A stretch of DNA of 64,000 nucleotides from Candidatus Omnitrophota bacterium. GTDB taxonomy: Bacteria > Omnitrophota > Gorgyraeia > Gygaellales > Profunditerraquicolaceae. Below the pieces are notes generated by a model. The model had not been told where the DNA came from, made no database searches, and saw nothing but the letters and a program-made list of their open reading frames with translations. Where the stretch lies: positions 2,882 to 66,881 of the forward strand of contig JBDRLG010000126.1 in assembly GCA_043813255.1 (NCBI GenBank), given 5' to 3'. Shown piece by piece: positions 10,089 to 59,104 of the stretch. Position 1 is the stretch's first letter, and every line of letters begins with the position of its first letter. A program made the position numbers and the translations under genes.

Positions 10089-10125
10089 GCTAATCCCCTT
10101 TTTTGTCCTAAATGTATATTTGGTT

Positions 10126-10782
10126 TTATAAATAAAGTTCATATTTTTGTCCATTATTAGTTAGAACAATTTTACCTTCTTGTATATCAGTTATTTCATA
10201 TTCTTCTATAAACTGGCCTTTTTGCAGATAATATGTCTTTTGGGCTTTTTTGTCTTCAATAATAGCTTGTGGGTTTTCCCCTGCAATTATTCCTACTAAA
10301 TTAAGATTCTTTAATAAATCACTGGTTACTGCCGCGCTAGCCTTGTTTTCTTTAGCAGCAACCGGGCTATTGAAAATCTGGCGGTTCCCGGTTTCTTCCA
10401 AATAAAATTCCAAAGAAGGTGCTTCTTTTCTTTCTTGGGCCTTTTCTTCTTGTTGTGTCTTCTCTGATGAAACTATAACAGGCGTTTTGAATGTTTTAAC
10501 TAAAAACAGTGAATATACTAAAGAGTATATTAAATATATTAAAGATAATACTACTATAAATATGATTATATTACGAAGTGAGAATATAGTCAAATATTTA
10601 GCTTTAAAATCCAGTACAGTTATTTTTTTTACGGATTTTTTATCTATAATAGGAATTTCTGAAGATAAAACAGTATTTTTTTCTGAAGAAGAAACTTGTT
10701 TTGAAGAAGTTGCAATATTACGGTTTTTAGGAGTTTTTATTAAATGCAACAGCCTTTCTTCAGGAGAAATATCGTCTTTCAT
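10126..10782 (-). CDS. Secretin-associated bitopic membrane protein (GspB/GspC/PilP-like)
   Basis: 218 aa with a single TM helix. The C-terminal beta-rich segment NLVGIIAGENPQAIIEDKKAQKTYYLQKGQFIEEYEITDIQEGKIVLTNNGQKYEL resembles PilP/GspC HR domains. It lies between the ExeA-like ATPase and the secretin. Confidence 0.35.
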   Translation of the reverse strand: MKDDISPEERLLHLIKTPKNRNIATSSKQVSSSEKNTVLSSEIPIIDKKSVKKITVLDFKAKYLTIFSLRNIIIFIVVLSLIYLIYSLVYSLFLVKTFKTPVIVSSEKTQQEEKAQERKEAPSLEFYLEETGNRQIFNSPVAAKENKASAAVTSDLLKNLNLVGIIAGENPQAIIEDKKAQKTYYLQKGQFIEEYEITDIQEGKIVLTNNGQKYELYL

Positions 10783-11597
10783 AGAATTAAATCCCGTTGT
10801 ATTACATCTGTAATTATTTTTTCATCTATTGTTTGAGTGTCATTCATTATAAGTGTTTCTAACGCGTTATGACAAAGCATAGTTATCCGCCTAGGGCATC
10901 CGCTGCTATATTTATAAATCATTTTTATAGCATCTTCCATAAAAATTGAAGTTTGGTTTTTAAACCCTGCCTGTTTTAATCTGAATTCAATTAGTTGTTT
11001 TGTTTCATTTTCATCAAGAGGCGTAATAACATACTTTGCAGCAATACGGTCTAAAAAATTTCTTATTTTTTTTATACGAGGCACCAGTTCCAATTGCGCC
11101 ATAATCACTAATTGCAATAATTTATGTTCATTTGTTTCATAATTAAGCAGCATTCTGAGTATTTCCAGGTTTTCAGAAGATATTTTTTGGCCTTCATCAA
11201 CTATTAAAACAACAGTTTTATTCTCTTCTATAGCTTTTTGAAATAAATATTTTTCAATAGCCTCTTTGAAATCTAAACTTGATCTGGATTTAGGGGGAAT
11301 ATTAAATATTTTTACTAAATGGAGTAGAAATTGGAGTTCAGTTTTATGTCCGGCATCAAGTAAAAGATGCAGCACGAAATCATCTTCACCTTCAAATGTT
11401 TTTAATAATGCCCGTGAAAGAGTGGTTTTCCCTGTTCCAACATCACCTAAAACAAGGCATAATCCTCTGCGTAGACGGATAGCTATTTCAAGACGCTTAA
11501 GAATAGTGCCATGAGTATTAGAGCGGTATAGGAAATTAGGGTCAGGGCTGGTAGAGAACGGTTCTTTTTCTAAGCCTATAGTTTTATAATAACTCAT
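10779..11597 (-). CDS. ExeA/GspA-like AAA+ ATPase (secretin assembly factor)
   Basis: 272 aa. Walker A GDVGTGKTT and Walker B LIVDEGQ are present. The architecture is ExeA-like and the gene is next to a secretin. Confidence 0.75.
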   Translation of the reverse strand: MSYYKTIGLEKEPFSTSPDPNFLYRSNTHGTILKRLEIAIRLRRGLCLVLGDVGTGKTTLSRALLKTFEGEDDFVLHLLLDAGHKTELQFLLHLVKIFNIPPKSRSSLDFKEAIEKYLFQKAIEENKTVVLIVDEGQKISSENLEILRMLLNYETNEHKLLQLVIMAQLELVPRIKKIRNFLDRIAAKYVITPLDENETKQLIEFRLKQAGFKNQTSIFMEDAIKMIYKYSSGCPRRITMLCHNALETLIMNDTQTIDEKIITDVIQRDLIL

Positions 11598-12699: not shown

Positions 12700-13818
12700 A
12701 TGTTTAATATACTTCTAATATTTATCTTTTTACGCCCCTTTATTTCTTCCGTGGCTTATCCTTTAGAAAACAGTATTTATTCAGTATTGTTATTTCTTTT
12801 TTTAGTTAGTTATCTTTTTCTAAAAAAGTTTGAATTAAATAAACTGCAAAGAATTAAATATCCTCTTATTTTCTTTTTGTTAAGTTTGATTATTTCTTTT
12901 ATTTTCTCTTCTTCAAAATTGAACAGCTCTTTGCGGATATTCGATTATATTTTAGGGTTATTATTGTTTTTTAGTATGTTTTCGATTTCTGCTGAAAATA
13001 AAATTCGGGTAATCCAGACAATTATTTTAAGCGGGTTGGTGGTAAGTTTTTTGGCAATTTATCAGTATTTTTTCGGCTTTCAACATTTGTCAGCTTATAT
13101 TGCTAAGAAAGGGATAGATAATTCTTTTATTATAGATTGTGTTAACCAAAAAAGAGTTTTTTTCCCTTTTATGACTCCGAATATCCTATCTGGATTTTTA
13201 GCTTTGAGCATAGTATTTATTCCTGTAATAAAACATAAAATAAAATGGTTATTTTTTCTTACAATGTTTATTGCGCTTATTCTTACTAGATCTTTAGGGG
13301 GAATCTTAAGTATCATTTTGGCAATTATAATATTAAACTTTATTCAGAGAAAATTATTCCGGAGATACTATTATTTAATAGTTATCTTTATTCTTTCTTT
13401 AGTTTCTATTTTTATATTAAGACAATTTTCTCTAAAAGAGCAATTTTTGCCTTTATTCTCTTTTTTAAGTAGGATAGAATATTGGAAAGAGACGATAGAT
13501 ATAATAAAACTTCATCCTTTTACAGGTATAGGTTTAGGTAATTTAAATTTATCTATGAGCCGTTATGCGCATAATCTATATTTACAGTTATGGGCAGAAA
13601 CAGGGATTTTGGGACTCTTTTCATTTCTATGGTTAGTTGGGGCTGTTTTGAAATACAATATAAAATATATCAAAGATTTTGGATGTAATTATATAAATCT
13701 AAATATATTACTTTTAGTAGCTGTTATACTTTTCTTAATAGACAATTTTATAAGTTTCAGCTTTTTTCTTCCGGAGGTTTCTTTTATTTGGTGGATAATA
13801 TTAGGTTTGAGTATATGA
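12700..13818 (+). CDS. O-antigen ligase/polymerase family membrane protein (WaaL/Wzy-like)
   Basis: 372 aa with about 10 TM helices, including a periplasmic loop with ...TGIGLGNL.... The topology is consistent with the O-antigen ligase domain family. It is one of only two plus-strand genes. Confidence 0.55.
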   Translation: MFNILLIFIFLRPFISSVAYPLENSIYSVLLFLFLVSYLFLKKFELNKLQRIKYPLIFFLLSLIISFIFSSSKLNSSLRIFDYILGLLLFFSMFSISAENKIRVIQTIILSGLVVSFLAIYQYFFGFQHLSAYIAKKGIDNSFIIDCVNQKRVFFPFMTPNILSGFLALSIVFIPVIKHKIKWLFFLTMFIALILTRSLGGILSIILAIIILNFIQRKLFRRYYYLIVIFILSLVSIFILRQFSLKEQFLPLFSFLSRIEYWKETIDIIKLHPFTGIGLGNLNLSMSRYAHNLYLQLWAETGILGLFSFLWLVGAVLKYNIKYIKDFGCNYINLNILLLVAVILFLIDNFISFSFFLPEVSFIWWIILGLSI

Positions 13819-14831
13819 AACTGAAAATTCTCGCGCATAAATATTTTAGTCTGTGCAGAGCTTTATTATATAAATTTAGGGTAGTTAATTTTTTGAAAAT
13901 GATATCCGCTTATTTAGTAAAGATAACTTATTTTCAAAGTTTGCCTTTTGTTATTCAAATAGAGCCTACAAATAGATGTAATTTGAAATGTTCTTTATGT
14001 ATTACCGGAACTGGAAAATTACGAAGATCCGCAGGAAATATGACTTTTGAGGAATTTGAAAAAATAATAAAAAAAATAGATAAAAATACTTTTTATTTAG
14101 GATTATATAATTTAGGAGAATCTCTCTTAAATCCTGATATATATAAAATGATCATTTACGCTAAGGAAAAGAGAATGTTTACAAGATTAAGTACGAATGC
14201 TTTTTTTGATAATGAAGAGAATATAGTTAAATTAATGAATTCCGGCATAGATGAATTAATTATCTCTTTGGATTGTGCCACCCCGCAAACATATACTAAA
14301 TATAAGGGAATAGATGGTTTCCAGAGAGTTATAAGAAATATAAAATTAATAATAAAAGAACGTGCTAATAAATTAAACCCCATTATTGTATTGCAATTAT
14401 TAATTATGAAAGAAACAGAGAATGAAATTAAAAAATTTAAAGAATTAGCGCATGAGTTAAAAGTAGATAAAACTGTGCTAAAAACATTGCGTATCAATTT
14501 TCCTGGAGTCCCTGGTGATAAAAGTTTTCTCCCAAATAACCTCAGATATATTCGAAAGGCATATATCAATAGAAATGATTCAAGTAACAAATGTTTTCGT
14601 CCATGGGTATCAGCAGTTATTTTATGGGATGGTAGTATTGTGCCGTGTTGTTTTGATATGGAAGGAGAATATAATTTTGGCAATATACATAATCAAACCT
14701 TTGAAGAAATTTGGAGAAATGAAAAATACGTTTCTTTTAGAAAAGAAATATTAAAGATAAATAACCGAATTGGTTTATGTAAAGAATGTAGTTTAAATCA
14801 TCTCTTGCACAATATTAAGCTATATTCATAA
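13815..14831 (+). CDS. Radical SAM protein with SPASM domain
   Basis: Cluster motif IEPTNRCNLKCSLCITG (Cx3Cx2C). The Cys-rich C-terminus is CFRPW...PCCFDMEG...GLCKECS. The start ATG at 13815 overlaps the ligase stop (ATGA coupling). Confidence 0.85.
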   Translation: MKLKILAHKYFSLCRALLYKFRVVNFLKMISAYLVKITYFQSLPFVIQIEPTNRCNLKCSLCITGTGKLRRSAGNMTFEEFEKIIKKIDKNTFYLGLYNLGESLLNPDIYKMIIYAKEKRMFTRLSTNAFFDNEENIVKLMNSGIDELIISLDCATPQTYTKYKGIDGFQRVIRNIKLIIKERANKLNPIIVLQLLIMKETENEIKKFKELAHELKVDKTVLKTLRINFPGVPGDKSFLPNNLRYIRKAYINRNDSSNKCFRPWVSAVILWDGSIVPCCFDMEGEYNFGNIHNQTFEEIWRNEKYVSFRKEILKINNRIGLCKECSLNHLLHNIKLYS

Positions 14832-14840
14832 AAAATTATT

Positions 14841-15542
14841 TTAATAATTTTTTATTTCTTTCCCGTTAATAATTGCTGACTTTAATTCAAGAAGTTTAAA
14901 GTGGAATGTATTATTATCTTTTTTAGTTTCTATGCAAAATTCTTTAATTTTTCCTATATTAGGAGCAAGCCAGATACTGCAATCATAGGTTTTGCATTTA
15001 TTGCCATCTTCTTCTTTATTGGAATAATTTTTAGTAAATTTTAGACAATCTTTAAATTTTCCAGCACTAACTTCTATATCTTCTATGGAATCTAATGTTA
15101 TTATGCCCGCGTCTATTTCTTTTATGCTATTATCATTAGCCCGCATTAAATTAGTGGAATATTCTATGCTTTTTCCTATTTCTATGTTGGGAAATAATAA
15201 CCGCGGGGGAGTATAAATGTAGGAAGTATTGTCATCAAGAACCTTGTATTCTTTTATTCCTTGTGAATCGATAGCTGTATATGTATATTCATCTTCTTCT
15301 GTTGAAGCCGTTATTTTTGTAACTTTAATCCTATTAAATAATTCAGTATTATCTACCGCGATTGTATTTTCTTCCACAATATTTTTTTCATCACTTATTA
15401 CATATGTCCAGCTATTCCCTTGTTCCAATGGATAATATTCTTTTAGGTTAAATGCTAGAGCAAAATTATTACATAAGAATATCATATTTGTTGTCAAAAT
15501 TATAATAGGAATAGTTTTTAAAGAAAGTTTCCTTGTATTCAT
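14841..15542 (-). CDS. Secreted hypothetical protein
   Basis: 233 aa with an N-terminal signal peptide and no recognisable motif. Confidence 0.4.
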   Translation of the reverse strand: MNTRKLSLKTIPIIILTTNMIFLCNNFALAFNLKEYYPLEQGNSWTYVISDEKNIVEENTIAVDNTELFNRIKVTKITASTEEDEYTYTAIDSQGIKEYKVLDDNTSYIYTPPRLLFPNIEIGKSIEYSTNLMRANDNSIKEIDAGIITLDSIEDIEVSAGKFKDCLKFTKNYSNKEEDGNKCKTYDCSIWLAPNIGKIKEFCIETKKDNNTFHFKLLELKSAIINGKEIKNY

Positions 15543-15627
15543 TTATTCTCCCCAGTTCTCAAAAGAAATATAAAATACTTTATTTTCTCAAGTTGTATTA
15601 TTATAACATATTTTTTTTGGAAAAGAA

Positions 15628-17232
15628 TTATAAATAGTGTTTTTGCCAAAAAATATTATCTGTTATTTTAACAATAAAAATATCTTTTTTTTCAAAGACC
15701 TTTTCAGATTTAGGTATTCTTATTAAAGCAAACTTAGGATTACTTGGTATTAAACTGTTTATATACTCATTAAAAGGATTGATATAGAAATTACCTGTTT
15801 TTAAATAATCCCCATTAAAATGAGGGGTATAAACAATAATATGCGTTATATTGTATCTTTTGCAAAAATTATATATTTCTTTAGGAGAGCATGAATAATA
15901 AGCTTTAAAGAAATCATAAGTGCGTTTTTTTATAATAGGGTAATAATTATTATAATATGGTTCAGATGTTTCTTCATTAATCAATACCTTGCGTTTAGCA
16001 AATGTAGGGATATTATCCATTAGGCTGGGATGGCCGGCGATAAGGATGTTTTTGGGCAAAGTTTGGAGGTAATTATAAAGTTCAGGTTGATTCGCTATGA
16101 TATAATATTTTTGTAAGCAAGGAATAAAGTATAGCCCAATTAGAGAAATAGAAATACACAAGATTATTAATTGTGCTTTTAAGGAGGCAGTGTTTTTTCT
16201 TATTATTGCGGCAATATGGGTGCTAATAAATAATATTAAAAAAAGAGGCAGGGAATACCTCATGAATCTTGAGGGGCCATAAAATTTGTACATAAAAATA
16301 TTTGAAATTATAAAAAAGAATAAAGATATAGTTATAAAATACCAGTATTCTTTAGGTAGTTTAATCAGTTTTTTTCTTAAAATAATAATAATAAAAATAG
16401 AAAGGCCTAAAAGAAAAGATAAAGATGAATCCATGGCTAAGCCGCTCTGGTAATTCGTTATTTGTTTTAAAAAAGAAGGGAAAAGAACAGGAGTCCGGCC
16501 TCCTTCGTAGAATTCTTGCATATTTTTCATGCTTTCCAGGCTTATTAGAGAAATATCTTTCAGGGAATAATTTTTTAATAAAATTATAGAAATTATTGAT
16601 GTTATAAATAATAATAACAATATATGTTTAATCTCCCCCTTTTTATTTTTGACTGTTTCTATTAAAAAATAAAATAAATATACAAAAAAACAAATTAGAA
16701 ATAAAGGAGGATAAAATAGAGAAAGTAAAATTAGAGTAAAACTTGACTTAAAAAATTTTCTGTTGGTAAAAAAATATAAGAACATAATAAAAAATAATAT
16801 ACCAAAGTCTGCCCCATCTCCTGTTCCAAAAACAGAAAAAATTTTTCTGCTCCAGCTAGTAAATATAAAAAGTATACTGGCTATTATAGCTGAATATAAG
16901 CCTGTTGAAAAAAAACACAATCTAAATATATAAAACACAGAAAGAGCACATAGAATAAATGGTAAAACTTTAGTTATGGGAATAGGCGAACAAAAAAAAC
17001 TGGTTATAAAGTAAAAAATATTTAATCCCCAGGGATTTTTAGCATAATAAAAATCAGTTATAATATCATTTTTAAAAAGTTCCTTATCCATATATTTTAG
17101 ATAGGGATAAATTGTTTGTCGTATATCATCATTTATTGCATAATTGTTTGAGAGCAAAGGATATTGGCAATATAAAGTAATTAAAAGAGAAAATAATAAA
17201 ATTATACTTAAAGCTATATTTATTTTTTTCAT
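15628..17232 (-). CDS. Polytopic membrane protein, putative GT-C-fold glycosyltransferase (paralog of 40915-42534)
   Basis: 534 aa. The N-terminal ~11 TM region has an acidic NDD motif in the first loop, and there is a C-terminal soluble domain. It shares long identical stretches with the 40915 gene: FAKRKVLINEETSEPYYNNYYPIIKKRTYDFFKAYY versus YSKRKVLINEETSQPMYANFYPVIKERTYNFFKAYY. Confidence 0.45.
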   Translation of the reverse strand: MKKINIALSIILLFSLLITLYCQYPLLSNNYAINDDIRQTIYPYLKYMDKELFKNDIITDFYYAKNPWGLNIFYFITSFFCSPIPITKVLPFILCALSVFYIFRLCFFSTGLYSAIIASILFIFTSWSRKIFSVFGTGDGADFGILFFIMFLYFFTNRKFFKSSFTLILLSLFYPPLFLICFFVYLFYFLIETVKNKKGEIKHILLLLFITSIISIILLKNYSLKDISLISLESMKNMQEFYEGGRTPVLFPSFLKQITNYQSGLAMDSSLSFLLGLSIFIIIILRKKLIKLPKEYWYFITISLFFFIISNIFMYKFYGPSRFMRYSLPLFLILFISTHIAAIIRKNTASLKAQLIILCISISLIGLYFIPCLQKYYIIANQPELYNYLQTLPKNILIAGHPSLMDNIPTFAKRKVLINEETSEPYYNNYYPIIKKRTYDFFKAYYSCSPKEIYNFCKRYNITHIIVYTPHFNGDYLKTGNFYINPFNEYINSLIPSNPKFALIRIPKSEKVFEKKDIFIVKITDNIFWQKHYL

Positions 17233-17234
17233 GT

Positions 17235-18002
17235 CTATGGATGAAATTTTAATTCTTTAATTAGATCCTTAGGGTTAAAGAAATCTTTTATTTTTTCATA
17301 ATTATTTCTGTACAAATAAGAAATATCTAAAATAACTCTTTTCATCCTTCCTAGTAGTCCGTAATGACTTTTTCCATGCCTTCTTTTATTACAAGATATT
17401 TTTACTTCAGTAATAGAGATTTTTTTACCTCTCATTAATAAAGGAATAAACCGGTGTGATTCCCCATATAATTTAATATCTTTAATTAATTCCTGGCGGT
17501 AAGCCCTAAAGCTACAACAAATTTCATGGAGTTCAGTATTAAATAGTATATTAATTATTTTATTAGCAATTAATGAAGGTAATATTTTATTCAGGAAATT
17601 ATCTTCTCTATGATTTTTCCATCCATTTACCAGATCATAGCCATATTCAATTTTCTCTAGGAATTTAGGAATATCATAAGGATTGTGTTGGAGGTCTCCA
17701 TCCATAGTTATAACTATTTCGCCTTTTGAAAAATAAAAACCGGCAGATAAACTGGCAGTCTGCCCATATTTTTTTATTAATTTAATAATATTTAGATTTT
17801 TATCTTTTTTATGAATTTCACATAGATATTGGTAAGTCTTATCATTGCTCCCATCATCTATAAAAATTATTTCATAAGTTTTATTTATAGTATTCAAAAC
17901 CTCCTTTAATTGAGTATAGAGCAAGATTATATTGTCCTCTTCATTATTAACGGGAATTATTATGGATAGGTATTTTTCAGGAGGATAAACAAATTTATTC
18001 AT
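17235..18002 (-). CDS. GT2 polyprenyl-phosphate glycosyltransferase (GtrB/CsbB/ArnC-like)
   Basis: 255 aa. Contains YLSIIIPVNNEEDNI...IIFIDDGSNDKT...ITMDGDLQHNP. Confidence 0.8.
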   Translation of the reverse strand: MNKFVYPPEKYLSIIIPVNNEEDNIILLYTQLKEVLNTINKTYEIIFIDDGSNDKTYQYLCEIHKKDKNLNIIKLIKKYGQTASLSAGFYFSKGEIVITMDGDLQHNPYDIPKFLEKIEYGYDLVNGWKNHREDNFLNKILPSLIANKIINILFNTELHEICCSFRAYRQELIKDIKLYGESHRFIPLLMRGKKISITEVKISCNKRRHGKSHYGLLGRMKRVILDISYLYRNNYEKIKDFFNPKDLIKELKFHP

Positions 18003-18868
18003 AGATCTTTAAAGGCAATTAATTTTATATTTGATTTTTTAATTAATTCTTTTAACTCGGGGCTAATTAAGGCATTTAACTCTGCTTCTCTGGAATTATT
18101 TAAATAGTATTTTTCTGTATTCAACGGGTAATTATCCCATTCCTCATCAATATATCCGGGATGGCACATTATTTCAATAGTCCCATTTTTTAAATCTAGC
18201 AAGACTTTTTTAAATTCAGAAATTATCGCATTGCTATCAATCCGGGAAATTCCGTAGAAAAAATCCGTAGTTTTTAAATCGCATTTCTGAATAGATAATC
18301 TATTTTGTTTAGAAAATATATTAAGAAATAAATTATTGTAAAATTTGTTTGTGAAAATTCCTGAAGCCCCCAAGATATTACGATAAGGAATTTTATTAAT
18401 ATATCTTACCTTAGAAATGCCATATTCTTTGGCTATTTTAATCGTGGTGTCAAATATGGGTTTTATCAGGTGTAAGTGCTTTTCGCTATCGAGATGAGTG
18501 ATTGAGATATTTTTTTTTAGTAGTTTCTCTATCTGGGCCCTGCATTCCGATTCTAATTCTTTGAAGTCTAAATTTCCAGCATAAATGGAATAGAGAAAGA
18601 TAAAAATATTATTGAAAAAAGAACCTTTTTTCGTAAGGCTTTTTAATTTCAAAGCAGGTAAAATAGGGTTGCCTCTAAATATATTCAAATGAATTCCTAC
18701 TGGTAATTGGGGATTCTCAGTTATTAAATCCACGGCATTATCAAACCCTGGCATATTTGGTAATAATGAGGTATTAGTTAATATACCTTCTTTAAAGGCT
18801 TTTATTATGCCTTTATTTATACTTTTGCTTAAGCCAAAATCATCAGCATTAATTATAATTTTCCGCAT
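17999..18868 (-). CDS. YdjC/ChbG/HpnK-family carbohydrate deacetylase
   Basis: 289 aa. The N-terminal motif is IINADDFGLSKSINKGIIKAFKEGILT, with a His-rich centre THLDSEKHLHL. This family deacetylates (Glc)NAc-containing substrates. Confidence 0.85.
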   Translation of the reverse strand: MRKIIINADDFGLSKSINKGIIKAFKEGILTNTSLLPNMPGFDNAVDLITENPQLPVGIHLNIFRGNPILPALKLKSLTKKGSFFNNIFIFLYSIYAGNLDFKELESECRAQIEKLLKKNISITHLDSEKHLHLIKPIFDTTIKIAKEYGISKVRYINKIPYRNILGASGIFTNKFYNNLFLNIFSKQNRLSIQKCDLKTTDFFYGISRIDSNAIISEFKKVLLDLKNGTIEIMCHPGYIDEEWDNYPLNTEKYYLNNSREAELNALISPELKELIKKSNIKLIAFKDL

Positions 18869-18897
18869 TATATAAGATCGATTTTAATTTGATGCCC

Positions 18898-20316
18898 TTA
18901 AGTATCATTTTTATTTGAGAATAACCATCTTAAAGCCACTTTAATATACCTAAAAAATTCATTTTTCGATTTTGAATTTATGACTCTTTTTAATATGTAT
19001 GATGGCCTAAAGTAAAATTCTCTATAAAATCTTCCAGCTAATTTTTCTATTTCATTTTGCGTTAATGTTGTCCATGGGGTTGGAAGGCGTTTTTTATCCA
19101 GGTCTATTTTATTTAAAATATATTCTTTCCAATAATCAATACCTGTTGTTTTAATTAATAATTCATTTAAATCGGTATTGGGCTTAGCGATAGTACGACA
19201 TACCTGAATGAAATCCAGTTTCATTTTTTTAGCAAAGTTTATTGAATTTAAAATATCTTTTTTTGTCTCTTCCGGGCTGCCAATAATAAAAAATCCCAAT
19301 GTCTTTATTTTATATTTGTAAGTCAGGTTTATAATCAGGGGTATTTTTTTTGTATCAATGCCTTTATTAATTGTATCCAGTATCTTTGTAGAAGCAGATT
19401 CTATCCCATAGTAAATTTTTTTGCATCCTGCTTCAGAAGCTTTCTTTAAAATATCCTCATCTACAACGTCTATCCTTGACCTGCATGACCATTCAATTTT
19501 TATATTTCGTTTTAATATCCCTTCGCATATTTTTATACCCCGTAATTTGTTTATAAAAAATGTGGCATCAAAAAAATCGATTTCTCTTGCGTTGTATTTA
19601 GTATAGCATTCTTCTATTTCATCTAAGATATTTTCTACACTTCTTTCCCTGTAAGGAATTTTAGAAATAGCGCAAAATTTGCATTTATGAGGGCATCCGG
19701 TGCTGGTAAGCATAATAGTATAATTTTTACGTTGAGACGTAAAAGAATAATAAAGATGATTTGGTAAAAGATGCCTGGCTGGAAAAGGGTATTCATCAAA
19801 GTTGATCGTTTCTTCAGAAGGAGGATTTATTATAAGCGTATTTTTGTCTTTATAAATAACCCCTTTTATATCTTTAAGGCTGAGCTTATTTTCTATTGCG
19901 GATATTAATTTTGGTAATGATTGATTTGCTTCCCCTATAATGCCATAATCAAAACAAGAGTAGGATAAAGATTCCTTTGGATATAAATTGATATTAATCC
20001 CTCCTGTTATTATCTTGACGTCCATATTTGTTTTGAAAAAACCAGCCCATTCAACTACTCTATGAAACCAATAAGTATCAGCCCGAAAGCCAATAATATG
20101 CGGATTGAAATCTTTCAAGATGTTTAAAGTTTCTTCTTTGGTTAGTTTTAAAGCATTGGCATCTATTATAATTACCTTATGCCCCGCTTTTTCTAATATA
20201 GCCGCGACATATGCTAAAATTATAGGCGGGGCTAAACAGAATTCTTCATCTACTATTTTTAAATTTTCGGAGAACTTCCGGTGTTCAAATGGGCAGTGAA
20301 TTAAGGCTATTCGCAT
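18898..20316 (-). CDS. B12-binding domain radical SAM enzyme (class B rSAM, methyltransferase/rearrangement type)
   Basis: 472 aa. The N-terminal Rossmann-like B12-binding region (RIALIHCPF...VIIIDANALK) is followed by a radical-SAM core LTSTGCPHKCKFCA (Cx3Cx2C). Confidence 0.85.
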   Translation of the reverse strand: MRIALIHCPFEHRKFSENLKIVDEEFCLAPPIILAYVAAILEKAGHKVIIIDANALKLTKEETLNILKDFNPHIIGFRADTYWFHRVVEWAGFFKTNMDVKIITGGININLYPKESLSYSCFDYGIIGEANQSLPKLISAIENKLSLKDIKGVIYKDKNTLIINPPSEETINFDEYPFPARHLLPNHLYYSFTSQRKNYTIMLTSTGCPHKCKFCAISKIPYRERSVENILDEIEECYTKYNAREIDFFDATFFINKLRGIKICEGILKRNIKIEWSCRSRIDVVDEDILKKASEAGCKKIYYGIESASTKILDTINKGIDTKKIPLIINLTYKYKIKTLGFFIIGSPEETKKDILNSINFAKKMKLDFIQVCRTIAKPNTDLNELLIKTTGIDYWKEYILNKIDLDKKRLPTPWTTLTQNEIEKLAGRFYREFYFRPSYILKRVINSKSKNEFFRYIKVALRWLFSNKNDT

Positions 20317-20337
20317 TATTTTTACCGTATTATTTAA

Positions 20338-21324
20338 TTAAAGAAGGTTGATTTTTATTATATTAAGGATAGTATCCAGGTTAAATTGAAATAAATAATT
20401 AAGTTCGATAAAAGATGCGCACCAGCATTCTTTGCAAGTAATATAATTTAATTTGTCAAAAGAATTTTTAAAACCAAGTTCTATAACATTAGGAACGTTC
20501 TTAGAAATTATAAAATTTCGGCCACAACCATACATATCTCCATTTGGTTGCAGCCGGCATATAATTAAGCTATTCACGCATTTGATTTTTGTAGGATTCG
20601 GCCAATTATAAAGATATTTTAATCCTGTAATAGAATTAACTATATAGTTATTCTTTTTTTTCTCTAAAATAAGATTATTAATTGTTCTTTTGTAGTCAGT
20701 TTCTTCAGAAATAACCGGATTCATTTCTAATCCTGCAAGTGTACGTAATCTCGCGGGTTGGAAACTAACAGGAATTTTAAACTCTTTTGCTTTATTTAAA
20801 ATAAATTCAATTTTATCAAGATTAAATTTAGATAAAACAGTATTAAACCTGAGTTTTAGTTTTTTCTTCTTAGCTATTTCTACGGCTTCCATTATATTAT
20901 TGTACGAGCCGTTTCCTCGTATAAAATCATGAATTTTCTCCGGCCCATCAAAACTTAAAGTTAATAGATCAAGTCCGGTTAGTTGGTTAATTTTTTCTTT
21001 TACGAGTGAACCGTTAGAATTTATGTCGATTACCACATTATTTTTTTTTGCATGTTCAATGATTGTTCCTATATCATCTCTTAAAAGGGGATTTCCTCCT
21101 GTGAGATGCAGTACCTGTGTACCCGACTGTTTCATCTCAGTTATTAAAGATAAAATTTTCTCTGTTTCCATTTCAGTCGTTTTCATTTTCCAGCTATCGC
21201 AATATAAACACCTTTGATTGCATCTATATGTCAGCAACCAGCTAACAATTACGGGAGATCTCTTCTTTAATAAATTTGCTTCTAATAGTTTAAATGCTAT
21301 TGATATTTTTTTAGTTGTTTTCAT
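20338..21324 (-). CDS. Radical SAM protein with SPASM/twitch domain (member of 4-paralog family)
   Basis: 328 aa. LLTYRCNQRCLYCDSW is followed by a C-terminal Cys cluster CVNSLIICRLQPNGDMYGC...CKECWC. It is paralogous to 24603, 42527 and 46017 (shared LTGGNPLLRDDIG / SFDGPE..HDFIRG blocks). Confidence 0.85.
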   Translation of the reverse strand: MKTTKKISIAFKLLEANLLKKRSPVIVSWLLTYRCNQRCLYCDSWKMKTTEMETEKILSLITEMKQSGTQVLHLTGGNPLLRDDIGTIIEHAKKNNVVIDINSNGSLVKEKINQLTGLDLLTLSFDGPEKIHDFIRGNGSYNNIMEAVEIAKKKKLKLRFNTVLSKFNLDKIEFILNKAKEFKIPVSFQPARLRTLAGLEMNPVISEETDYKRTINNLILEKKKNNYIVNSITGLKYLYNWPNPTKIKCVNSLIICRLQPNGDMYGCGRNFIISKNVPNVIELGFKNSFDKLNYITCKECWCASFIELNYLFQFNLDTILNIIKINLL

Positions 21325-23353
21325 TATTTTTTTTTATATATATAGCTAAATTAAGTATGTTTCTTTGATTTTCGCTAAGAGAATGCATCCTAAGGTAGTT
21401 ATTTTTTTTAATTCTATCAAGCTTTTTGAATTCTTTTAATTCAGTATTTTTAAAATGGAAATGTTCAGATGCGTATTTATAGTTAATTTTAGCGATATTA
21501 TTGAATTGTGATAAGGCTTGCTCAGGCATCCCTTTAATTAAATAAAGAGTTGCTAAATTTAGATGTGCGATAATGCAATTATGGTTAAGTTTTGTAGCGT
21601 CATTATAACTGCCAATAGCGGCAGATACATTGAAACCTTCGCCAAATCTTAAATAATCTTTATTATGTTCATAAAGATAGCCAAGAAAAAGATTTGAAAT
21701 ATATAAAAATATTTTGTCTTTAGTTAATCCAAGGGTTTTTTTAAGTTCTGCGATTGCTTTATTTTTAAAATCCATATTTGGATATTCAACTGCCAATTTG
21801 TTATAAAAAAAGGCGAGCAAAAAATGTTTCCAGTCATAATTATTGTTTAGATTATTAAGTCTTTGGATAATCCGAGGCACATAATTCTTGTCTATATTAT
21901 CTATTTCTAAAACATCTAAAATTTCTTTTATTTCTTTGTTTTGATTAAATGTTTTATATCTATTTAGGACTTCATCAGGGGCATCAAAACTAAAACAAGT
22001 AGTTAAAATATATAAAATATGAATTATTGTTTCATTTCTTTTTTCTTTTGTCAGATAATCTTCTATAGTATCAATATAGAACCCTTTTATGTCATAATCA
22101 GTGATACGCAGGATTGATTCTATCATCTGGATATCTAAAGTTTTTGGTGAATATACATATAAAGGCTCCATTTCAAAAAAATTTTCAGGTGTTATACCGT
22201 TTTCTATGGGTTTTATTTGATATAAGAATAAATATAACGCTAATTTCTCATTAAGGTTGATAAATTTTCTTTTAAAACTATTAATTATTTGTTTGAACTT
22301 AGCTATATTATTTAAATAATAACAGTCTGGAAATCCAAATTCTTTTATAGTGTTTCTAACAGTTGGCGATATTATAACTTGTATATCTTTTTGAGAATTT
22401 AATGTTTTCCAGTTTAATAATTTTCTTTTTTCTTTTTTTATGTCATTCTTTAACTTTTTACATATTTTAAGTAAATAATTGTCTTTGGCCTTTCGCGGTT
22501 TAGACGGCCATTTTAATCTACAGTTTCTTAAGCTGGATAAATATCGATAATATTGCTCAAAATTATACATTAAATTGTCTTTTCTTTCAATTAATAAATC
22601 TTTGTATTCAGCGCAGATAGATAGTGTTTTGAAACATCCATTATCTATATTTCGGATGTAGTTTATTAATTCAAAACTTTCGGCAAAATCAACAGGTATG
22701 TTTTTATTAATGTAGGCTTCCCAGAAACTACTATAATAATTCTCTTTATTTTTCGTGTTAAAGTCATTAATTAAGGTTTCATTTATATATTTAGATGAAA
22801 AAATATTATATTTATTAATACTAATAATCTTATCTTTGGTCAGCAAAAATTGGCTTGGGTCACATTCAAATATTTCTTCATCTGCAATCAGCCAATCAAT
22901 TATCTGCTGTTTTTGGATATAATTAATCTGTTTTTTGGAAAGGTTATTTATGCTAATAGTTGCTAAACTGTTCAGGGAAGGAATAAATTCTTGTATGATC
23001 CCTCTCTCTTTTTTTCCATTGACCGGTAACGTTATTTCATAGCATAAAGGCACTTTTTGTCCGCACAAGGATAACAGTTTGTATGTTTGGTCTAAGTTTG
23101 TATTTGATTTGCCGATTTTAAAGAACCACAATCTTTCATCTTCGCTCTTAAGTATGAATTTTGCGTTTTGTCCGCTCAGCATAGGTTGTTTATCAATTAA
23201 TGTGAAAGTCAATTTTTTAAATATTTTATCAGACAGGGATTTTTTTTCTAAAATTAAATTAATTGCTTCTTTTTCAAGCTGGGAATTGTCAATCCTATTA
23301 CAGCCAAAATTAGAAAACATAAGAATTAATATAAGTATTTGGATAATTTTCAT
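21311..23353 (-). CDS. Secreted/lipoprotein-like large hypothetical protein (possible atypical kinase-like N-domain, TPR-like C-terminus)
   Basis: 680 aa with a signal peptide ending ...FSNFGC. The segment GQNAKFILKSEDERLWFFKIGKS...IIQEFIP...IIDWLIADEEIF is reminiscent of protein-kinase-like folds (PI4K-II/CotH-type). This is a weak call by eye. Confidence 0.35.
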   Translation of the reverse strand: MKIIQILILILMFSNFGCNRIDNSQLEKEAINLILEKKSLSDKIFKKLTFTLIDKQPMLSGQNAKFILKSEDERLWFFKIGKSNTNLDQTYKLLSLCGQKVPLCYEITLPVNGKKERGIIQEFIPSLNSLATISINNLSKKQINYIQKQQIIDWLIADEEIFECDPSQFLLTKDKIISINKYNIFSSKYINETLINDFNTKNKENYYSSFWEAYINKNIPVDFAESFELINYIRNIDNGCFKTLSICAEYKDLLIERKDNLMYNFEQYYRYLSSLRNCRLKWPSKPRKAKDNYLLKICKKLKNDIKKEKRKLLNWKTLNSQKDIQVIISPTVRNTIKEFGFPDCYYLNNIAKFKQIINSFKRKFINLNEKLALYLFLYQIKPIENGITPENFFEMEPLYVYSPKTLDIQMIESILRITDYDIKGFYIDTIEDYLTKEKRNETIIHILYILTTCFSFDAPDEVLNRYKTFNQNKEIKEILDVLEIDNIDKNYVPRIIQRLNNLNNNYDWKHFLLAFFYNKLAVEYPNMDFKNKAIAELKKTLGLTKDKIFLYISNLFLGYLYEHNKDYLRFGEGFNVSAAIGSYNDATKLNHNCIIAHLNLATLYLIKGMPEQALSQFNNIAKINYKYASEHFHFKNTELKEFKKLDRIKKNNYLRMHSLSENQRNILNLAIYIKKNNENN

Positions 23354-23370
23354 GAAATAACTTTCTAAAA

Positions 23371-24597
23371 TTACCTAAAATTATTCAGTATATCAGCTAT
23401 ATACTTAATTTCTTTAGGATTTAAATAAGAATGAATAGGAATTTGTATGCTGTTTTCATATATTTGTTCACAAATAGGATATCTAGAAATATCACCATAA
23501 AGAGCAGCTACATTTCTCATGACATATTTGCCAGTATCAATTCCATTCTGCAATAGATATTTAGATAATTTATTCCTATTTTCAGATAAAAGGATATAAA
23601 AATAATAAATTGATCCCGGAATGCTTTTTATTTCTGTGTCTAATATGTCTTTTTTTAGGTATTTTTGTAATATTTTGATATTTTTAATTCTGTTTATATT
23701 TGAATAATCCAGTGATTTTAGTCTTAATAAAGCTATTGCCGCTTGCAGATTAGTTAAAAGCCTGATTTCAGTTTTTTTGTTCGTTATTTTTTTAAATGTT
23801 TTATTAAATGATATTAATAACAAATCTCTGTCACTGAAAAAAGAATTAATTAATAAAATAGGATAAATGAATAAACTGAAAATAAATTTATTGGCAGTTA
23901 TTGCTATTAGCCAAGTAATAAGTATTTCTTTTAACAAAATATTTAAACTGATTGGCTTACAGGAAGATAGATCTTTTTTTATTTTTTTAGCCGAGATTTC
24001 ATTATTACAAGCTACGCATCCTCCTCCGTAACTATGAAAATGTTTGGTAGAATTAAAGCTGAAATAAGAAAAATGCCCTAAGGAACCTGCTTTCCGTTTA
24101 TTATTTAATACTGCTCCCGGCGCGTGAGCACAATCTTCAATCACATAAATACCATGTTTATTACAGAATTCTAATAATTCTTCAATATCACAGATACTGC
24201 CGAAAATATGAGTGATTATAATTGCCTTTGTATTTGTAGTTATTTTTTTCCTTATCTGGTTTATATCAATGTTAAAGTCTTCTTTTCTGATATCACAAAA
24301 AACAGGTTTGAGCCCTTCATTGATAATTGCCCAAGGCACGCTTTCGTCAGTATAAGCAGGCAGTATTATTTCACTGTCTTGAGGAAAATTTAAAGTTTTT
24401 AGAATGAGGCGTAATGCAGACCTTCCGGAAGAAACTGCAAATACGTATTTTGTGCCTAAATAATCTGCAAATTGCTGTTCAAATAAAGCTGCATTTTGTC
24501 CTTTTATCGCTTTACCTGATAAAATAGTCCAGATAACTTTTTGTATTTCTCCTGTTATAATACTAATTTTTCTACGGGGAATTGGGTATATAAGCAT
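23371..24597 (-). CDS. DegT/DnrJ/EryC1/StrS-family PLP-dependent sugar aminotransferase
   Basis: 408 aa. The N-terminal region reads GKAIKGQNAALFEQQFADYLGTKYVFAVSSGRSAL. The PLP-lysine context is GSLGHFSYFSFNSTKHF (SFxxxK). Confidence 0.75.
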   Translation of the reverse strand: MLIYPIPRRKISIITGEIQKVIWTILSGKAIKGQNAALFEQQFADYLGTKYVFAVSSGRSALRLILKTLNFPQDSEIILPAYTDESVPWAIINEGLKPVFCDIRKEDFNIDINQIRKKITTNTKAIIITHIFGSICDIEELLEFCNKHGIYVIEDCAHAPGAVLNNKRKAGSLGHFSYFSFNSTKHFHSYGGGCVACNNEISAKKIKKDLSSCKPISLNILLKEILITWLIAITANKFIFSLFIYPILLINSFFSDRDLLLISFNKTFKKITNKKTEIRLLTNLQAAIALLRLKSLDYSNINRIKNIKILQKYLKKDILDTEIKSIPGSIYYFYILLSENRNKLSKYLLQNGIDTGKYVMRNVAALYGDISRYPICEQIYENSIQIPIHSYLNPKEIKYIADILNNFR

Positions 24598-24602
24598 ATA
24601 TT

Positions 24603-25598
24603 TTATGTTCTTCTATAAATTTGTTTTAATGAATTAAATATAGAATCAAATTTAAAGCTGTAAAGAAAATTGAGCTCTATCTGAGCCGCGATCCAGCAAT
24701 TTAAACAGCTATAAGGTTCTAAACTTAAAAAAGCATTTTTGATTCCTTGATGAGAAATATTAATATCTTTTTTATTGGTCTCATCACCGCAACTTTTTAT
24801 AAATCCGTTATTTTCTATTCTGCAATAAATTTTTCCTGCGGCGCATGGTATTTTTGTCGGTTCTGGCCAGTTTAAAAAATGTTTTAAACAAAGTAAGGAA
24901 TTTCCTATGTATGGATGTTTATTTAATTTATAATTAATTAAAGATTGAATAATTTTTTGGTAATTATTTCTTTTATTTAATAATATTTGATTGGTTCTCC
25001 CGCTGCCACGGTTTAATATCCTCGCGGGTTGAAATACAGTAGCAATTTCAAGTTTTTTTGCCAGTTTTAAAATAAATTCTATAAAATCAAGATTAATTTC
25101 TGATAATACTGATGTGAATTTTATTTCCCATCCTTTGTTTTTTGCTATTTTTATTGCTTCCATAGTGTTTTTGTAAGCTCCTTTCCCTCTTATGCTGTCA
25201 TGAACATCGGGTGGGCCGTCTAATGAAAGGACAATCCTGTCTAAACCGGTTATTTGTTTTGCCCTGTCTGATAACAGATATCCACTGGTATTAATACTGA
25301 CATAAATATTCTTTTCTTTGCAATAATTTAGGATTATCCCTATATCATTTCTTAACATGGGTTCTCCGCCTGTAAAATTTATAATCTTTGTTCCCGCCTT
25401 TGTAAGCTGGTCTATAAAGGAGAGAACAGCTTTGGTGTCTAAATCCTTAGTAGGAACTTCATTTACTCCGCAGTAAAGGCAATTATAATTGCAATGATAT
25501 GTTATAGCCCAGCTGACAAAAAAGGGGATTCTTTTTTGTAATAATTTAGTTTTGATAAACAAGTCATATCCGGCTTTTAAAATATCAAATTTTTTCAT
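24603..25598 (-). CDS. Radical SAM protein with SPASM/twitch domain (paralog family)
   Basis: 331 aa. ITYHCNYNCLYCG is followed by the C-terminal Cys set CAAGKIYCRIENNGFIKSC...CLNC. It is directly adjacent to the DegT aminotransferase. Confidence 0.85.
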   Translation of the reverse strand: MKKFDILKAGYDLFIKTKLLQKRIPFFVSWAITYHCNYNCLYCGVNEVPTKDLDTKAVLSFIDQLTKAGTKIINFTGGEPMLRNDIGIILNYCKEKNIYVSINTSGYLLSDRAKQITGLDRIVLSLDGPPDVHDSIRGKGAYKNTMEAIKIAKNKGWEIKFTSVLSEINLDFIEFILKLAKKLEIATVFQPARILNRGSGRTNQILLNKRNNYQKIIQSLINYKLNKHPYIGNSLLCLKHFLNWPEPTKIPCAAGKIYCRIENNGFIKSCGDETNKKDINISHQGIKNAFLSLEPYSCLNCWIAAQIELNFLYSFKFDSIFNSLKQIYRRT

Positions 25599-25607
25599 TA
25601 ATGATAA

Positions 25608-27092
25608 CTATTGTTTTGTTTGTTCTGGAAGCATAGCTTCGCAAATGGTATTAGCAGCATTTAATGCTATTAAGTAATAGCCTTTGGCATTACAATGTCC
25701 ATCAGGAATAAAATATTCACTGTAATGGCCGTATTTTAAAGCATCCTTAAATATTATCAAATTATCTATGAATAGAATGTCGCTATATTCCGCGCACATT
25801 TTTTTAATCCCCTCTATATCTGAAAGAGGGTAAGACATTAATAGCAGGGGTATATGTTTATTGTTTGTAATTTTATAAATAATATCGATATTACTGCGAA
25901 GAACTTTATTATTTGTATTTTGGATTTTCTGGATTTCTTCAAAATATTGTTTAGCCTGAGGGTACCTGTTTTGTTTTTTATAACAATTAACTAACTGCAG
26001 GTACGCAAAATCATTTTCCGGATTTAATTTTATCACATCTTTATATAAATTTTCTGCTTTTACATATTGTTTTGTTTCCATATATATATCTGCCAATTCA
26101 ACCCATGCTTTTTCTGCTGAAGGAGTAGATTCTAAATATTTCTTATAGCATATTTCTGCTTCATTATATTTTTTTTGGCATTTGTAACATCTTCCCAGAT
26201 TTTTATAAATTGTAATAGATTTTGGATAAAACGCCAGTACTTTTTTATAATATTCTTCAGCCCGGGAATAATTTTTTAAAAATACATAACAATCTCCTGT
26301 CATGCTATAAGCTTTCTTGGCATAAATTAAATTCAGGTTTGTTGCAGCAGTATACATTTTTATAGCTTTTAAATATTCACTATGGTGCCTGTATAAATCT
26401 CCTAAATTCATATAATCATTGGCATCTTTTGGACCTTTTTTAGATATTATTTTCATGCCTGGTTCTTCTTTAGAAGTATTCTCTTTTATTGTATCAGTTT
26501 TATGGGGAATTAAAGTAATACTTGTTTTTTTTGTTTTTAATTCATCTGTTTCGGTTTTTTTGTTCACAAAATTTGTCCATAACCATTTCGCTAGTTTATA
26601 TATTCTCATTTTAAATAAATAAAACCGTATTTTATTTATCGAAAAATATTTAGAAGATAATGAAGTATATTCACTTGTATTTGCCCATTCGTATTCATGT
26701 TGTCTTAGTAATAGAATTATCATGTCCGGAGAATATTCTTTAATAGCATTAATTATTGAATTTGGCAGTTCTGGAGAAGAATAGCCTCCGGGAATCCCTT
26801 TATTAATAATTTTAAAACTTTTTCCCGGGTATTTTTTATTTAATATCTTTTCAAGCTGGCTGGGATAATCTTTGCCTATAGGAGCTCCTACTCCATATGT
26901 AAAAGAATCTCCCAGACATAATATGCGGTATGCAGAAGTATCGGAGACTTTATTTTTGTATGATTGTACTTGTAAAAGAATATAACCTATTGTTCGTAAT
27001 CCAAATTCCAAAATAAATAAACTTAGTATTAATCCGAATAGGAATAAAACTATTTTTTCTTTATTTGATGTAAAAACCTTCTTTTTAGCCAA
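25608..27092 (-). CDS. SGNH/GDSL hydrolase-fold protein with embedded TPR repeats, membrane-anchored
   Basis: 494 aa. The N-terminal TM anchor is followed by GDSL block I (ILCLGDSFTYGVG). Several TPR-like repeats are inserted in the middle (YMNLGDLYRHH..., YKNLGRCYKCQKKYNEAE...). The C-terminal DGHCNAKGY matches the catalytic DxxH block. Confidence 0.55.
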   Translation of the reverse strand: MAKKKVFTSNKEKIVLFLFGLILSLFILEFGLRTIGYILLQVQSYKNKVSDTSAYRILCLGDSFTYGVGAPIGKDYPSQLEKILNKKYPGKSFKIINKGIPGGYSSPELPNSIINAIKEYSPDMIILLLRQHEYEWANTSEYTSLSSKYFSINKIRFYLFKMRIYKLAKWLWTNFVNKKTETDELKTKKTSITLIPHKTDTIKENTSKEEPGMKIISKKGPKDANDYMNLGDLYRHHSEYLKAIKMYTAATNLNLIYAKKAYSMTGDCYVFLKNYSRAEEYYKKVLAFYPKSITIYKNLGRCYKCQKKYNEAEICYKKYLESTPSAEKAWVELADIYMETKQYVKAENLYKDVIKLNPENDFAYLQLVNCYKKQNRYPQAKQYFEEIQKIQNTNNKVLRSNIDIIYKITNNKHIPLLLMSYPLSDIEGIKKMCAEYSDILFIDNLIIFKDALKYGHYSEYFIPDGHCNAKGYYLIALNAANTICEAMLPEQTKQ

Positions 27093-46015: not shown

Positions 46016-46016
46016 T

Positions 46017-59096: not shown

Positions 59097-59104
59097 AATA
59101 GACC

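Follow-up and report, generated by a model that had tools for sequence, protein, structure and literature searches.

A polyprenyl-phosphate amino-sugar module with radical-SAM partners, predicted from the genome of an uncultivated Omnitrophota bacterium

Overview

We analysed a 64,000-nucleotide stretch of contig JBDRLG010000126.1 (the window; ~29% GC), from assembly GCA_043813255.1 of an uncultivated Omnitrophota bacterium. Within it, a run of minus-strand genes at 15628-20316 encodes a GT-C-fold membrane glycosyltransferase, a short GT2 glycosyltransferase, a YdjC-family deacetylase and a B12-binding radical S-adenosylmethionine (SAM) enzyme (B12-rSAM). By analogy with characterised systems we favour, on balance, the reading that the window encodes a periplasmic module of the three-component type, in which an amino sugar would be built on polyprenyl phosphate, tailored by radical-SAM enzymes and transferred by the GT-C protein. 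A first-pass annotation of this DNA had named the same four genes, and the minus-strand open reading frames (ORFs) and their domain matches bear these identities out; it had also given the radical-SAM role in the module to the B12-rSAM and had left out the SPASM gene nearby, the radical-SAM gene with which the YdjC-GT2-GT-C string has a conserved association. The genes concerned are as follows.

15628-17232, minus strand: GT-C-fold polytopic membrane glycosyltransferase, 534 amino acids (aa), with a C-terminal periplasmic domain
17235-18002, minus strand: short GT2 of the ArnC/GtrB/DPM1 type, 255 aa (PF00535, 105 bits), predicted polyprenyl-phosphate N-acetylhexosamine (HexNAc) synthase
17999-18868, minus strand: YdjC-family deacetylase, 289 aa (PF04794), predicted lipid-linked HexNAc N-deacetylase with a NaxD-like role
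18898-20316, minus strand: B12-rSAM, 472 aa (PF02310, 57.8 bits; PF04055, 72.5 bits), HpnJ-like but of a distinct family
13788-14831, plus strand: radical-SAM/SPASM enzyme, 347 aa (PF04055 and PF13186)
14841-15542, minus strand: exported 233-aa protein with an N-terminal hydrophobic segment, DUF3108-like in its orthologues; its gene recurs next to the GT-C gene on the downstream side

A conserved YdjC-GT2-GT-C string and its radical-SAM partner

Between ~14.8 and 63.7 kb the ORFs of 120 aa or more are nearly all on the minus strand, in close packing. The intergenic gaps from 14841 to 29152 are 85, 2, -4, 29, 21, -14, 17, 5, 9 and -43 nt; the 2, -4 and 29 nt are those between the GT-C, GT2, YdjC and B12-rSAM genes, i.e. 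the YdjC gene overlaps the GT2 gene by 4 nt. A scan for promoters and terminators from 11.5 to 29.5 kb returned the counts expected from shuffled sequence in DNA of 29% GC and was uninformative. The window was compared with loci (L-numbers) from metagenome-assembled genomes (MAGs), metagenome contigs and plasmids, and with individual proteins (P-numbers). The close relative L144 encodes four proteins that are 75-84% identical to those of the window and has an identical ten-gene order; the arrangement is therefore not an accident of assembly.

The YdjC, GT2 and GT-C genes are contiguous and in the same order in L144 and in three relatives at 48-56% identity (L145, L085 and L086), and the same genes occur rearranged in L088 and L089. 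Farther YdjC homologues (40-49% identity) likewise have an ArnC-like GT2 after them, and then a GT-C protein of the PMT_2 type in L147, L148 and L150; in L146 a PMT_2 gene lies two genes upstream and in L149 there is no PMT_2 gene. In L150, a distant metagenome contig, the order is that of the window, i.e. B12-rSAM, YdjC (with a 4-nt overlap), ArnC-like GT2 and PMT_2 GT-C, and in L148, an Aminicenantales MAG, it is YdjC, GT2, HpnJ-like radical-SAM enzyme and PMT. The general logic of the ArnC/ArnD/ArnT system, which the first-pass annotation had proposed for these genes, is thus upheld by the recurrence of the string, including its versions with PMT_2 GT-C proteins.

A census of 56 metagenomic or assembly loci, each holding a member of the GT-C family of the window with at least 1 kb of flanking sequence, gave a DPM1/ArnC-like GT2 in 26 loci, directly adjacent to the GT-C gene in 15 of them. 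The two functions are also found in one polypeptide (P0410, a GT2::GT-C fusion). Within this GT-C family, P0410, P0421 and P0328 have a further glycosyltransferase domain at the N-terminus, which is GT2 in proteins of 788 and 852 aa and GT4 in one of 1084 aa. Orthologues of the exported 14841-15542 protein follow the GT-C gene in L144 and L085 and are also present in L145 and L086.

Orthologues of the SPASM enzyme (365-419 bits) are encoded immediately upstream of YdjC in L145, L086, L088, L146 and L020. In the window the SPASM gene is displaced and inverted, beyond the small exported protein, and it has the same position in L144. Of the radical-SAM enzymes it is the SPASM enzyme, and not the B12 enzyme, whose association with the string is conserved. 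The first-pass annotation had suggested a co-occurrence analysis of its four genes in other genomes; the YdjC, GT2 and GT-C genes do recur together, and orthologues of the B12 enzyme are seldom near YdjC, as described below.

Enzymes of the string

The curated families that best match the GT2 are ArnC (NF007986, 130.8 bits) and PgfS (119 bits), and the ArnC score falls short of the equivalog cut-off of 529 bits. Its only strong matches in the PDB are ArnC (9hwj, 7.5e-32, over residues 6-220) followed by GtrB and DPMS, so that its catalytic GT-A domain resembles those of three solved polyprenyl-phosphate glycosyltransferases. The corresponding GT2s of L148 and L150 score 224-234 bits and are 330-338 aa long, and the L148 protein (338 aa, 234 bits) matches ArnC from end to end. 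Taken together, this homology and the adjacency and fusion of such enzymes to GT-C proteins suggest that the GT2 moves a sugar residue from a nucleotide sugar onto polyprenyl phosphate.

The deacetylase scores 211 bits on the YdjC profile (cut-off 29.7), the check that had been suggested for it. It keeps the N-terminal NADDFG stretch, and 19 homologues, a bona fide HpnK among them, share its residues D9, D10, H60, H125, H133 and H236 without exception. It lies below the equivalog cut-offs of both ChbG (NF002559; 169.8 against 227 bits) and HpnK (TIGR03473; 154.8 against 232.6 bits). Given the conserved YdjC-GT2-GT-C strings, and by analogy with the role of NaxD, it would be expected to deacetylate polyprenyl-phosphate-linked HexNAc.

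The protein encoded at 15628-17232 has the GT-C membrane fold, and residues N34-D35-D36 directly follow its first transmembrane segment (TM1), i.e. the acidic residue of the first extracytoplasmic loop is present. In 37 homologues D36 never varies, and the conservation of R38 is 90% or higher. Neither the ArnT/PMT_2 (PF02366 and PF13231) and YfhO (PF09586) models nor any other Pfam or NCBIfam model matched this protein, its paralogue in the window or seven further members of the family, which at 50% identity comprises 2889 clusters at E<=1e-3 and 1473 at E<=1e-30. The NCBI annotation starts the gene later (487 aa, P0121), at the cost of TM1 and the invariant D36; in view of its homologues and a confident structural model, the 534-aa ORF is the better-supported prediction.

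The B12-binding radical-SAM enzyme

The B12-rSAM has the make-up of a class B enzyme, with an N-terminal B12-binding Rossmann domain and a radical-SAM core whose CxxxCxxC cysteines (C208, C212 and C215) are invariant. Its best curated family is HpnJ (TIGR03471), to which the first-pass annotation had likened it. Orthology with HpnJ is not supported, as the score is 173.2 bits against a cut-off of 577.6, and in a neighbour-joining tree of 31 B12-rSAMs the family of the window forms a clade of its own, apart from HpnJ, which falls together with a Lawsonia plasmid protein and L146_464 (bootstrap 75-78%). Bootstrap values at the deep nodes of this tree are below 20%, which precludes a positive placement of the family, and the B12 enzymes associated with YdjC do not form a single group but are scattered through an HpnJ-like radiation of poor resolution. 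The AlphaFold2 (AF2) model has a pLDDT of 91.3, and the top Foldseek matches are MgmA, OxsB, AprD4, TsrM, CysS and TokK. Since methylases (MgmA, TsrM, TokK and CysS), the ring-contracting OxsB and the diol dehydratase AprD4 are mixed at similar scores, the chemistry of the enzyme cannot be read from its fold.

We examined the neighbours, within 10 kb, of B12-rSAM orthologues scoring at least 400 bits in 64 loci from different genomes. The commonest neighbour was a small radical-SAM enzyme (30 loci); an LPG_synthase_TM protein was found in 14 loci, a DegT aminotransferase in 12 and a GT-C protein of the unmodelled family in two. In 17 loci the B12-rSAM was fused to a short GT2, and in 17 the same GT2 family was present as a separate gene, often the next one downstream, with one or the other arrangement in 31 loci. 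This GT2 subfamily matches the AglJ, PpgS and dolichyl-phosphate-hexose synthase models, and the GT2 at 17235-18002 is the top match in the window to its profile (166.7 bits). YdjC was a neighbour in only 3 of the 64 loci. The census thus links the B12 family firmly with polyprenyl-phosphate-sugar synthases and not specifically with YdjC. The first-pass annotation had made its interpretation depend on a conserved linkage of the B12-rSAM to YdjC and GT2 genes; the linkage to YdjC is not conserved and that to GT2 is strong.

Other HpnJ-like B12-rSAMs do adjoin YdjC (L150 and L148), and a single 785-aa ORF in L064 (6294-8651) joins B12-binding, radical-SAM and YdjC domains. Three kinds of fusion were thus found: B12-rSAM::YdjC, B12-rSAM::GT2 and GT2::GT-C. 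The YdjC part of the L064 protein scores 201.7 bits on HpnK (cut-off 232.6), and the same sequence occurs in L072, another MAG record that may derive from the same data. We predict that the B12-rSAM is a tailoring enzyme for a polyprenyl-phosphate-linked sugar.

The B12-rSAM has more than 796 homologues, many of them fused to GT2, and the lineages with the family in MAG records include Omnitrophota, Elusimicrobiota, Planctomycetota, Myxococcota and DPANN archaea. The fusions to AglJ/PpgS-like GT2s are of ~740 aa (P0084-P0119; L001:10001-12238; L085:12554-14767; L145:12635-14863) and are annotated merely as 'glycosyltransferase' or 'YgiQ'. Related B12-rSAMs also occur in plasmid-borne glycan loci of cultured organisms, i.e. 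on a 27-kb plasmid of Lawsonia intracellularis (L153), together with short GT2s, DUF2304 proteins, a second radical-SAM enzyme and many SAM methyltransferases, and on a Solidesulfovibrio plasmid (L152), together with a glycosyltransferase, an acyltransferase and an epimerase. These two loci could serve as experimentally tractable models.

The wider window

Further genes of the window that bear on the pathway are the following.

3946-4617, minus strand: another short GT2, AglJ/PpgS-like and 223 aa long, which could partner the B12-rSAM instead
20338-21324, minus strand: small radical-SAM enzyme, 328 aa (PF04055)
21311-23353, minus strand: 680-aa protein with an N-terminal signal-like segment and no Pfam hit
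23371-25598, minus strand: DegT-type sugar aminotransferase (408 aa) and second small radical-SAM enzyme (331 aa)
40915-47033, minus strand: paralogous sub-module of a GT-C paralogue, a small radical-SAM enzyme, a 362-aa protein, a second B12-rSAM and a radical-SAM/SPASM enzyme
50365-51411, minus strand: LPG_synthase_TM ('flippase-like') membrane protein (PF03706, 103 bits), candidate flippase for a lipid-linked sugar
52754-62523, minus strand: ABC-transporter O-polysaccharide set comprising a 1296-aa GT2...GT1 protein, Wzt with a C-terminal domain, Wzm, a flavin amine oxidase-like gene, a WecA-like GT4 and a GT1

The WecA-like transferase, Wzm/Wzt and glycosyltransferases, with a Wzy_C/ligase-like protein and a lipid A acyltransferase also encoded in the window, together make an ABC-transporter O-polysaccharide/lipopolysaccharide (LPS) locus, and the O-polysaccharide is the likely acceptor polymer. 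The LPG_synthase_TM family adjoins the GT-C gene in L145 and L089. Its member in the window scores 36.8 bits on TIGR00374 (cut-off 43.2); an assignment of these proteins to HpnL was dropped, as this generic flippase-like model was the only one that matched.

In the sub-module at 40915-47033 the GT-C paralogue (539 aa) is 46% identical to the 15628-17232 protein and the second HpnJ-like B12-rSAM (479 aa) is 31% identical to the first; the small radical-SAM enzyme has 326 aa and the SPASM enzyme 338. In L088 the gene set of this sub-module adjoins the YdjC module. In total the window encodes about nine polytopic GT-C-like proteins, of which two belong to the unmodelled family, two to YfhO and two to PMT_2, with three unassigned. 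It has only two short polyprenyl-phosphate-type GT2s (17235-18002 and 3946-4617), and ten or more radical-SAM genes along with DegT, AsnB-like and carbamoyltransferase genes.

The 680-aa protein is always paired with a small radical-SAM enzyme and has orthologues in L144, L145 and L085. Three polytopic proteins encoded on the minus strand at 31017-33131, 37084-38970 and 38945-40906 (628-704 aa, 8-11 TM-like segments, no Pfam hit) may be additional GT-C enzymes; their genes are interspersed with those for YfhO, AsnB-like and carbamoyltransferase proteins. Minus-strand genes at 8193-11597, directly downstream of the glycan locus, encode a secretin with a TonB-C-like tail, a protein resembling the C component of type II secretion systems and an AAA ATPase.

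Proposed pathway

In the pathway that we propose, the short ArnC/GtrB-like GT2 would place HexNAc from a nucleotide sugar on polyprenyl phosphate at the cytoplasmic face of the membrane, and the YdjC enzyme would strip the N-acetyl group, as NaxD does in Francisella, to give a polyprenyl-phosphate-linked hexosamine (HexN). One or more cytoplasmic radical-SAM enzymes would then edit the lipid-linked HexN with its anomeric phosphate kept, the candidates being the SPASM enzyme, as the conserved partner, and possibly, in this lineage, the adjacent B12-rSAM. A flippase, for which the LPG_synthase_TM protein is the candidate, would turn the donor outward, and the GT-C enzyme would hand the sugar to a periplasmic acceptor, most likely the O-polysaccharide/LPS of the ABC-transporter pathway in the window. 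Because a GT-C enzyme needs a donor with an anomeric phosphate, ring contraction of the HpnJ or Cds type (PMC13459092) seems less compatible with this scheme than C-methylation, deoxygenation or epimerisation. The identities and folds of the gene products, the conservation of gene order and the fusions are direct observations; all substrates, the succession of steps, what the radical-SAM enzymes do and the acceptor are inferred.

A number of observations weigh against this scheme. Unlike ArnC and GtrB, the GT2 has no C-terminal membrane hairpin, nor any hydrophobic or TM-like segment. No flippase of the GtrA, ArnE/F or MATE type adjoins the module, from which the LPG_synthase_TM gene is separated by 30 kb. 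SPASM enzymes are more familiar from the maturation of peptides or cofactors. With regard to the B12-rSAM, the rarity of YdjC near its orthologues counts in the same direction, as does the fact that within this B12 family adjacency to YdjC is confined to the window and its close relative L144.

Alternative readings

The B12-rSAM may instead work independently of the YdjC, GT2 and GT-C enzymes, in a second donor branch with an AglJ/PpgS-like GT2 of its own and small radical-SAM enzymes, and stand beside YdjC here as the result of a rearrangement. This would account for the scarcity of YdjC in the census and for the different short GT2 subfamily that is fused to or co-located with the B12 enzyme in 31 of the 64 loci, and the second short GT2 at 3946-4617 is a ready partner in the window itself. 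In L085 and L145, moreover, the B12 orthologue carries its own fused GT2 and lies downstream of the GT-C gene, which suggests a separate donor branch, and a SPASM or small radical-SAM enzyme fills the slot upstream of YdjC. However, the B12-rSAM and YdjC genes of the window are on the same strand with a gap of 29 nt that is kept in L144, other HpnJ-like B12-rSAMs adjoin or are fused to YdjC (L150, L148 and L064), and it is the GT2 of the string that best matches the B12-associated GT2 profile. We regard full independence as doubtful. As to whether the B12-rSAM acts on the same sugar as the YdjC and GT2 enzymes or on a second lipid-linked sugar, the chances appear to be about equal.

A further alternative concerns the acceptor, which could be a protein or another envelope polymer in place of O-polysaccharide/LPS, i.e. 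the GT-C enzyme would carry out OST- or PMT-like protein glycosylation with a monosaccharide donor. We consider this unlikely.

It is also conceivable that the YdjC enzyme acts on a soluble or polymeric substrate, either a chitooligosaccharide in the manner of ChbG or a polymer after sugar transfer, and that the GT2 is an ordinary polymer-building transferase. ChbG is indeed the top curated match of the YdjC enzyme, and the want of a membrane segment in the GT2 would fit, but the ChbG cut-off is not reached and the best alignments of the GT2 are to three solved polyprenyl-phosphate glycosyltransferases. The conserved gene order with GT-C and the GT2::GT-C fusion also speak against an ordinary GT2, and the YdjC enzyme has no signal peptide or TM-like segment and so cannot act after periplasmic transfer. 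This alternative is accordingly given very little weight.

Finally, a true hopanoid side-chain module, with orthologues of HpnI, HpnK and HpnJ making bacteriohopanetetrol glucosamine and cyclitol ether, for which the presence of HpnJ and HpnK among the top curated matches and the similar family make-up and same J-K order of true hpnI-J-K-L could be cited, is largely refuted: no protein reaches the HpnJ, HpnK or ArnC cut-off, the GT2 is ArnC-like with HpnI absent from the curated families matched, the small radical-SAM enzymes of the window score 58-69 bits against an HpnH cut-off of 225, the B12-rSAM lies outside the HpnJ group in the tree, the Hpn pathway makes no use of a GT-C transferase, the genes around the module are for LPS and O-polysaccharide, and no shc, hpnH, hpnG or hpnI gene was found within the 64-kb window. 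The strict hopanoid reading was rejected on these curated cut-offs and on genomic context.

Implications

The lipid-linked amino-sugar module that we favour points to a more general, tentative proposal, which we call on-carrier radical editing: radical-SAM enzymes of the HpnJ-like B12 and SPASM types may tailor polyprenyl-phosphate-linked amino sugars before GT-C transfer in many uncultivated, mostly anaerobic lineages. If this possibility proved true, it would constitute a new biochemical layer, by which many donor sugars are obtained from few lipid-linked precursors, and it would explain why about nine GT-C-like proteins and at least ten radical-SAM genes are found in the window together with only two short polyprenyl-phosphate-type GT2s. 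Its Rosetta stones would then be the three kinds of fusion (B12-rSAM::GT2, B12-rSAM::YdjC and GT2::GT-C). Should the radical-SAM enzymes act on the lipid-linked sugar, polyprenyl-phosphate sugars would for the first time be known as substrates of radical-SAM chemistry, and this would be a source of novel surface sugars.

The route from GT2 through deacetylase to GT-C is known from a few pathogens, where the cationic amino-sugar decorations that it makes drive polymyxin resistance and immune signalling. Lipid-linked amino-sugar transfer of the NaxD/Arn type is therefore familiar, and the triad of the window is of that kind; judged by the curated thresholds, it lies outside the ArnC, HpnK, ChbG, HpnJ and ArnT families. 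The recurrent coupling to radical-SAM enzymes, seen in gene order and in three kinds of fusion, the unmodelled GT-C family and the spread over uncultivated phyla are new. Our literature search found no paper on a radical-SAM enzyme with YdjC and a glycosyltransferase, or on a radical-SAM enzyme with undecaprenyl phosphate and GT-C, and a preprint on Omnitrophota genomes mentions radical SAM just as a domain in giant proteins. The analysis also offers candidate functions for a B12-rSAM family with hundreds of members, now labelled merely 'radical SAM protein', 'YgiQ' or 'BchE'.

Comparison with known systems

Three-component systems of the Gtr and GT136 types (GtrA/B/C, CsbB/YfhO and the Citrobacter pentofuranose system) combine a synthase, a flippase and a GT-C enzyme, and auxiliary enzymes diversify the carrier-bound donor (PMC11127046). 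YfhO and PMT_2 paralogues are likewise present in the window, whereas an adjacent GtrA- or MATE-type flippase is not, and the auxiliary enzymes are a deacetylase and radical-SAM enzymes in place of epimerases.

In the mycobacterial and corynebacterial PpgS/Rv3632/Rv3779 system a TM-less synthase makes polyprenyl-phosphate-GalNAc, the sugar is deacetylated on the carrier by a deacetylase that is still unidentified, and a GT-C enzyme transfers it to arabinogalactan (PMC9671496). The short TM-less GT2 of the window resembles this synthase, and the B12-associated GT2 subfamily matches the PpgS and AglJ models, but the PpgS system has no radical-SAM enzymes. The present results may help with the missing deacetylase of this galactosamine (GalN) pathway, in that they point to enzymes of the YdjC type.

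In the hopanoid system HpnI adds GlcNAc, HpnK deacetylates it and a radical-SAM step by HpnJ follows (PMC13459092). A true hopanoid block on a Mycetohabitans plasmid has hpnI, hpnJ and hpnK, with a 4-nt overlap of hpnJ and hpnK, and then a gene with an LPG-synthase domain. It shares with the window a GT2, a B12-binding radical-SAM enzyme, a YdjC protein and an LPG-synthase-type membrane protein, and the order of radical-SAM gene then YdjC. In the window, however, the GT2 belongs to another subfamily, the B12-rSAM to a separate clade, a GT-C enzyme is present and the predicted carrier is polyprenyl phosphate, not bacteriohopanetetrol. The parallel drawn by the first-pass annotation thus stands at the level of families, with the adjacency in L150 and L148, the L064 fusion and the shared LPG-synthase family in its favour, and does not extend to orthology with HpnJ.

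ArnD is a polysaccharide-deacetylase-type deformylase and not a YdjC enzyme. Apart from this, the window differs from the ArnC/ArnD/ArnT system, which adds 4-amino-4-deoxy-L-arabinose (L-Ara4N) to lipid A in E. coli and Salmonella, in that its GT2 falls well below the ArnC cut-off and no equivalent of ArnA, ArnB, ArnE or ArnF is adjacent. FlmF2 of Francisella and LgmA of Bordetella are ArnC-like GT2s, and FlmK and LgmB are ArnT-like GT-C enzymes. NaxD, a member of the YdjC superfamily, converts undecaprenyl-phosphate-HexNAc (GalNAc) to undecaprenyl-phosphate-HexN before its periplasmic addition in Francisella, and also in Acinetobacter (PMC11279074, a review), and the lipid A hexosamine modification of Bordetella requires lgmABC (PMC4993483). 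The first-pass annotation had named ArnD as the deacetylase precedent; a deacetylase precedent does exist, but it is NaxD that is the nearer one, ArnD being unrelated. FlmF2/NaxD/FlmK and LgmA/LgmC/LgmB comprise the same three enzyme classes as the window, which has them in one string. Unlike in these systems, the GT-C enzyme of the window is not ArnT/PMT_2 by sequence, the GT2 is without a membrane hairpin, radical-SAM enzymes are embedded among the genes, the acceptor is probably not a lipid A phosphate and the host is an uncultivated Omnitrophota bacterium. By analogy of function, the string of the window nevertheless appears to follow the logic of FlmF2/NaxD/FlmK more closely than that of ArnC/ArnD/ArnT.

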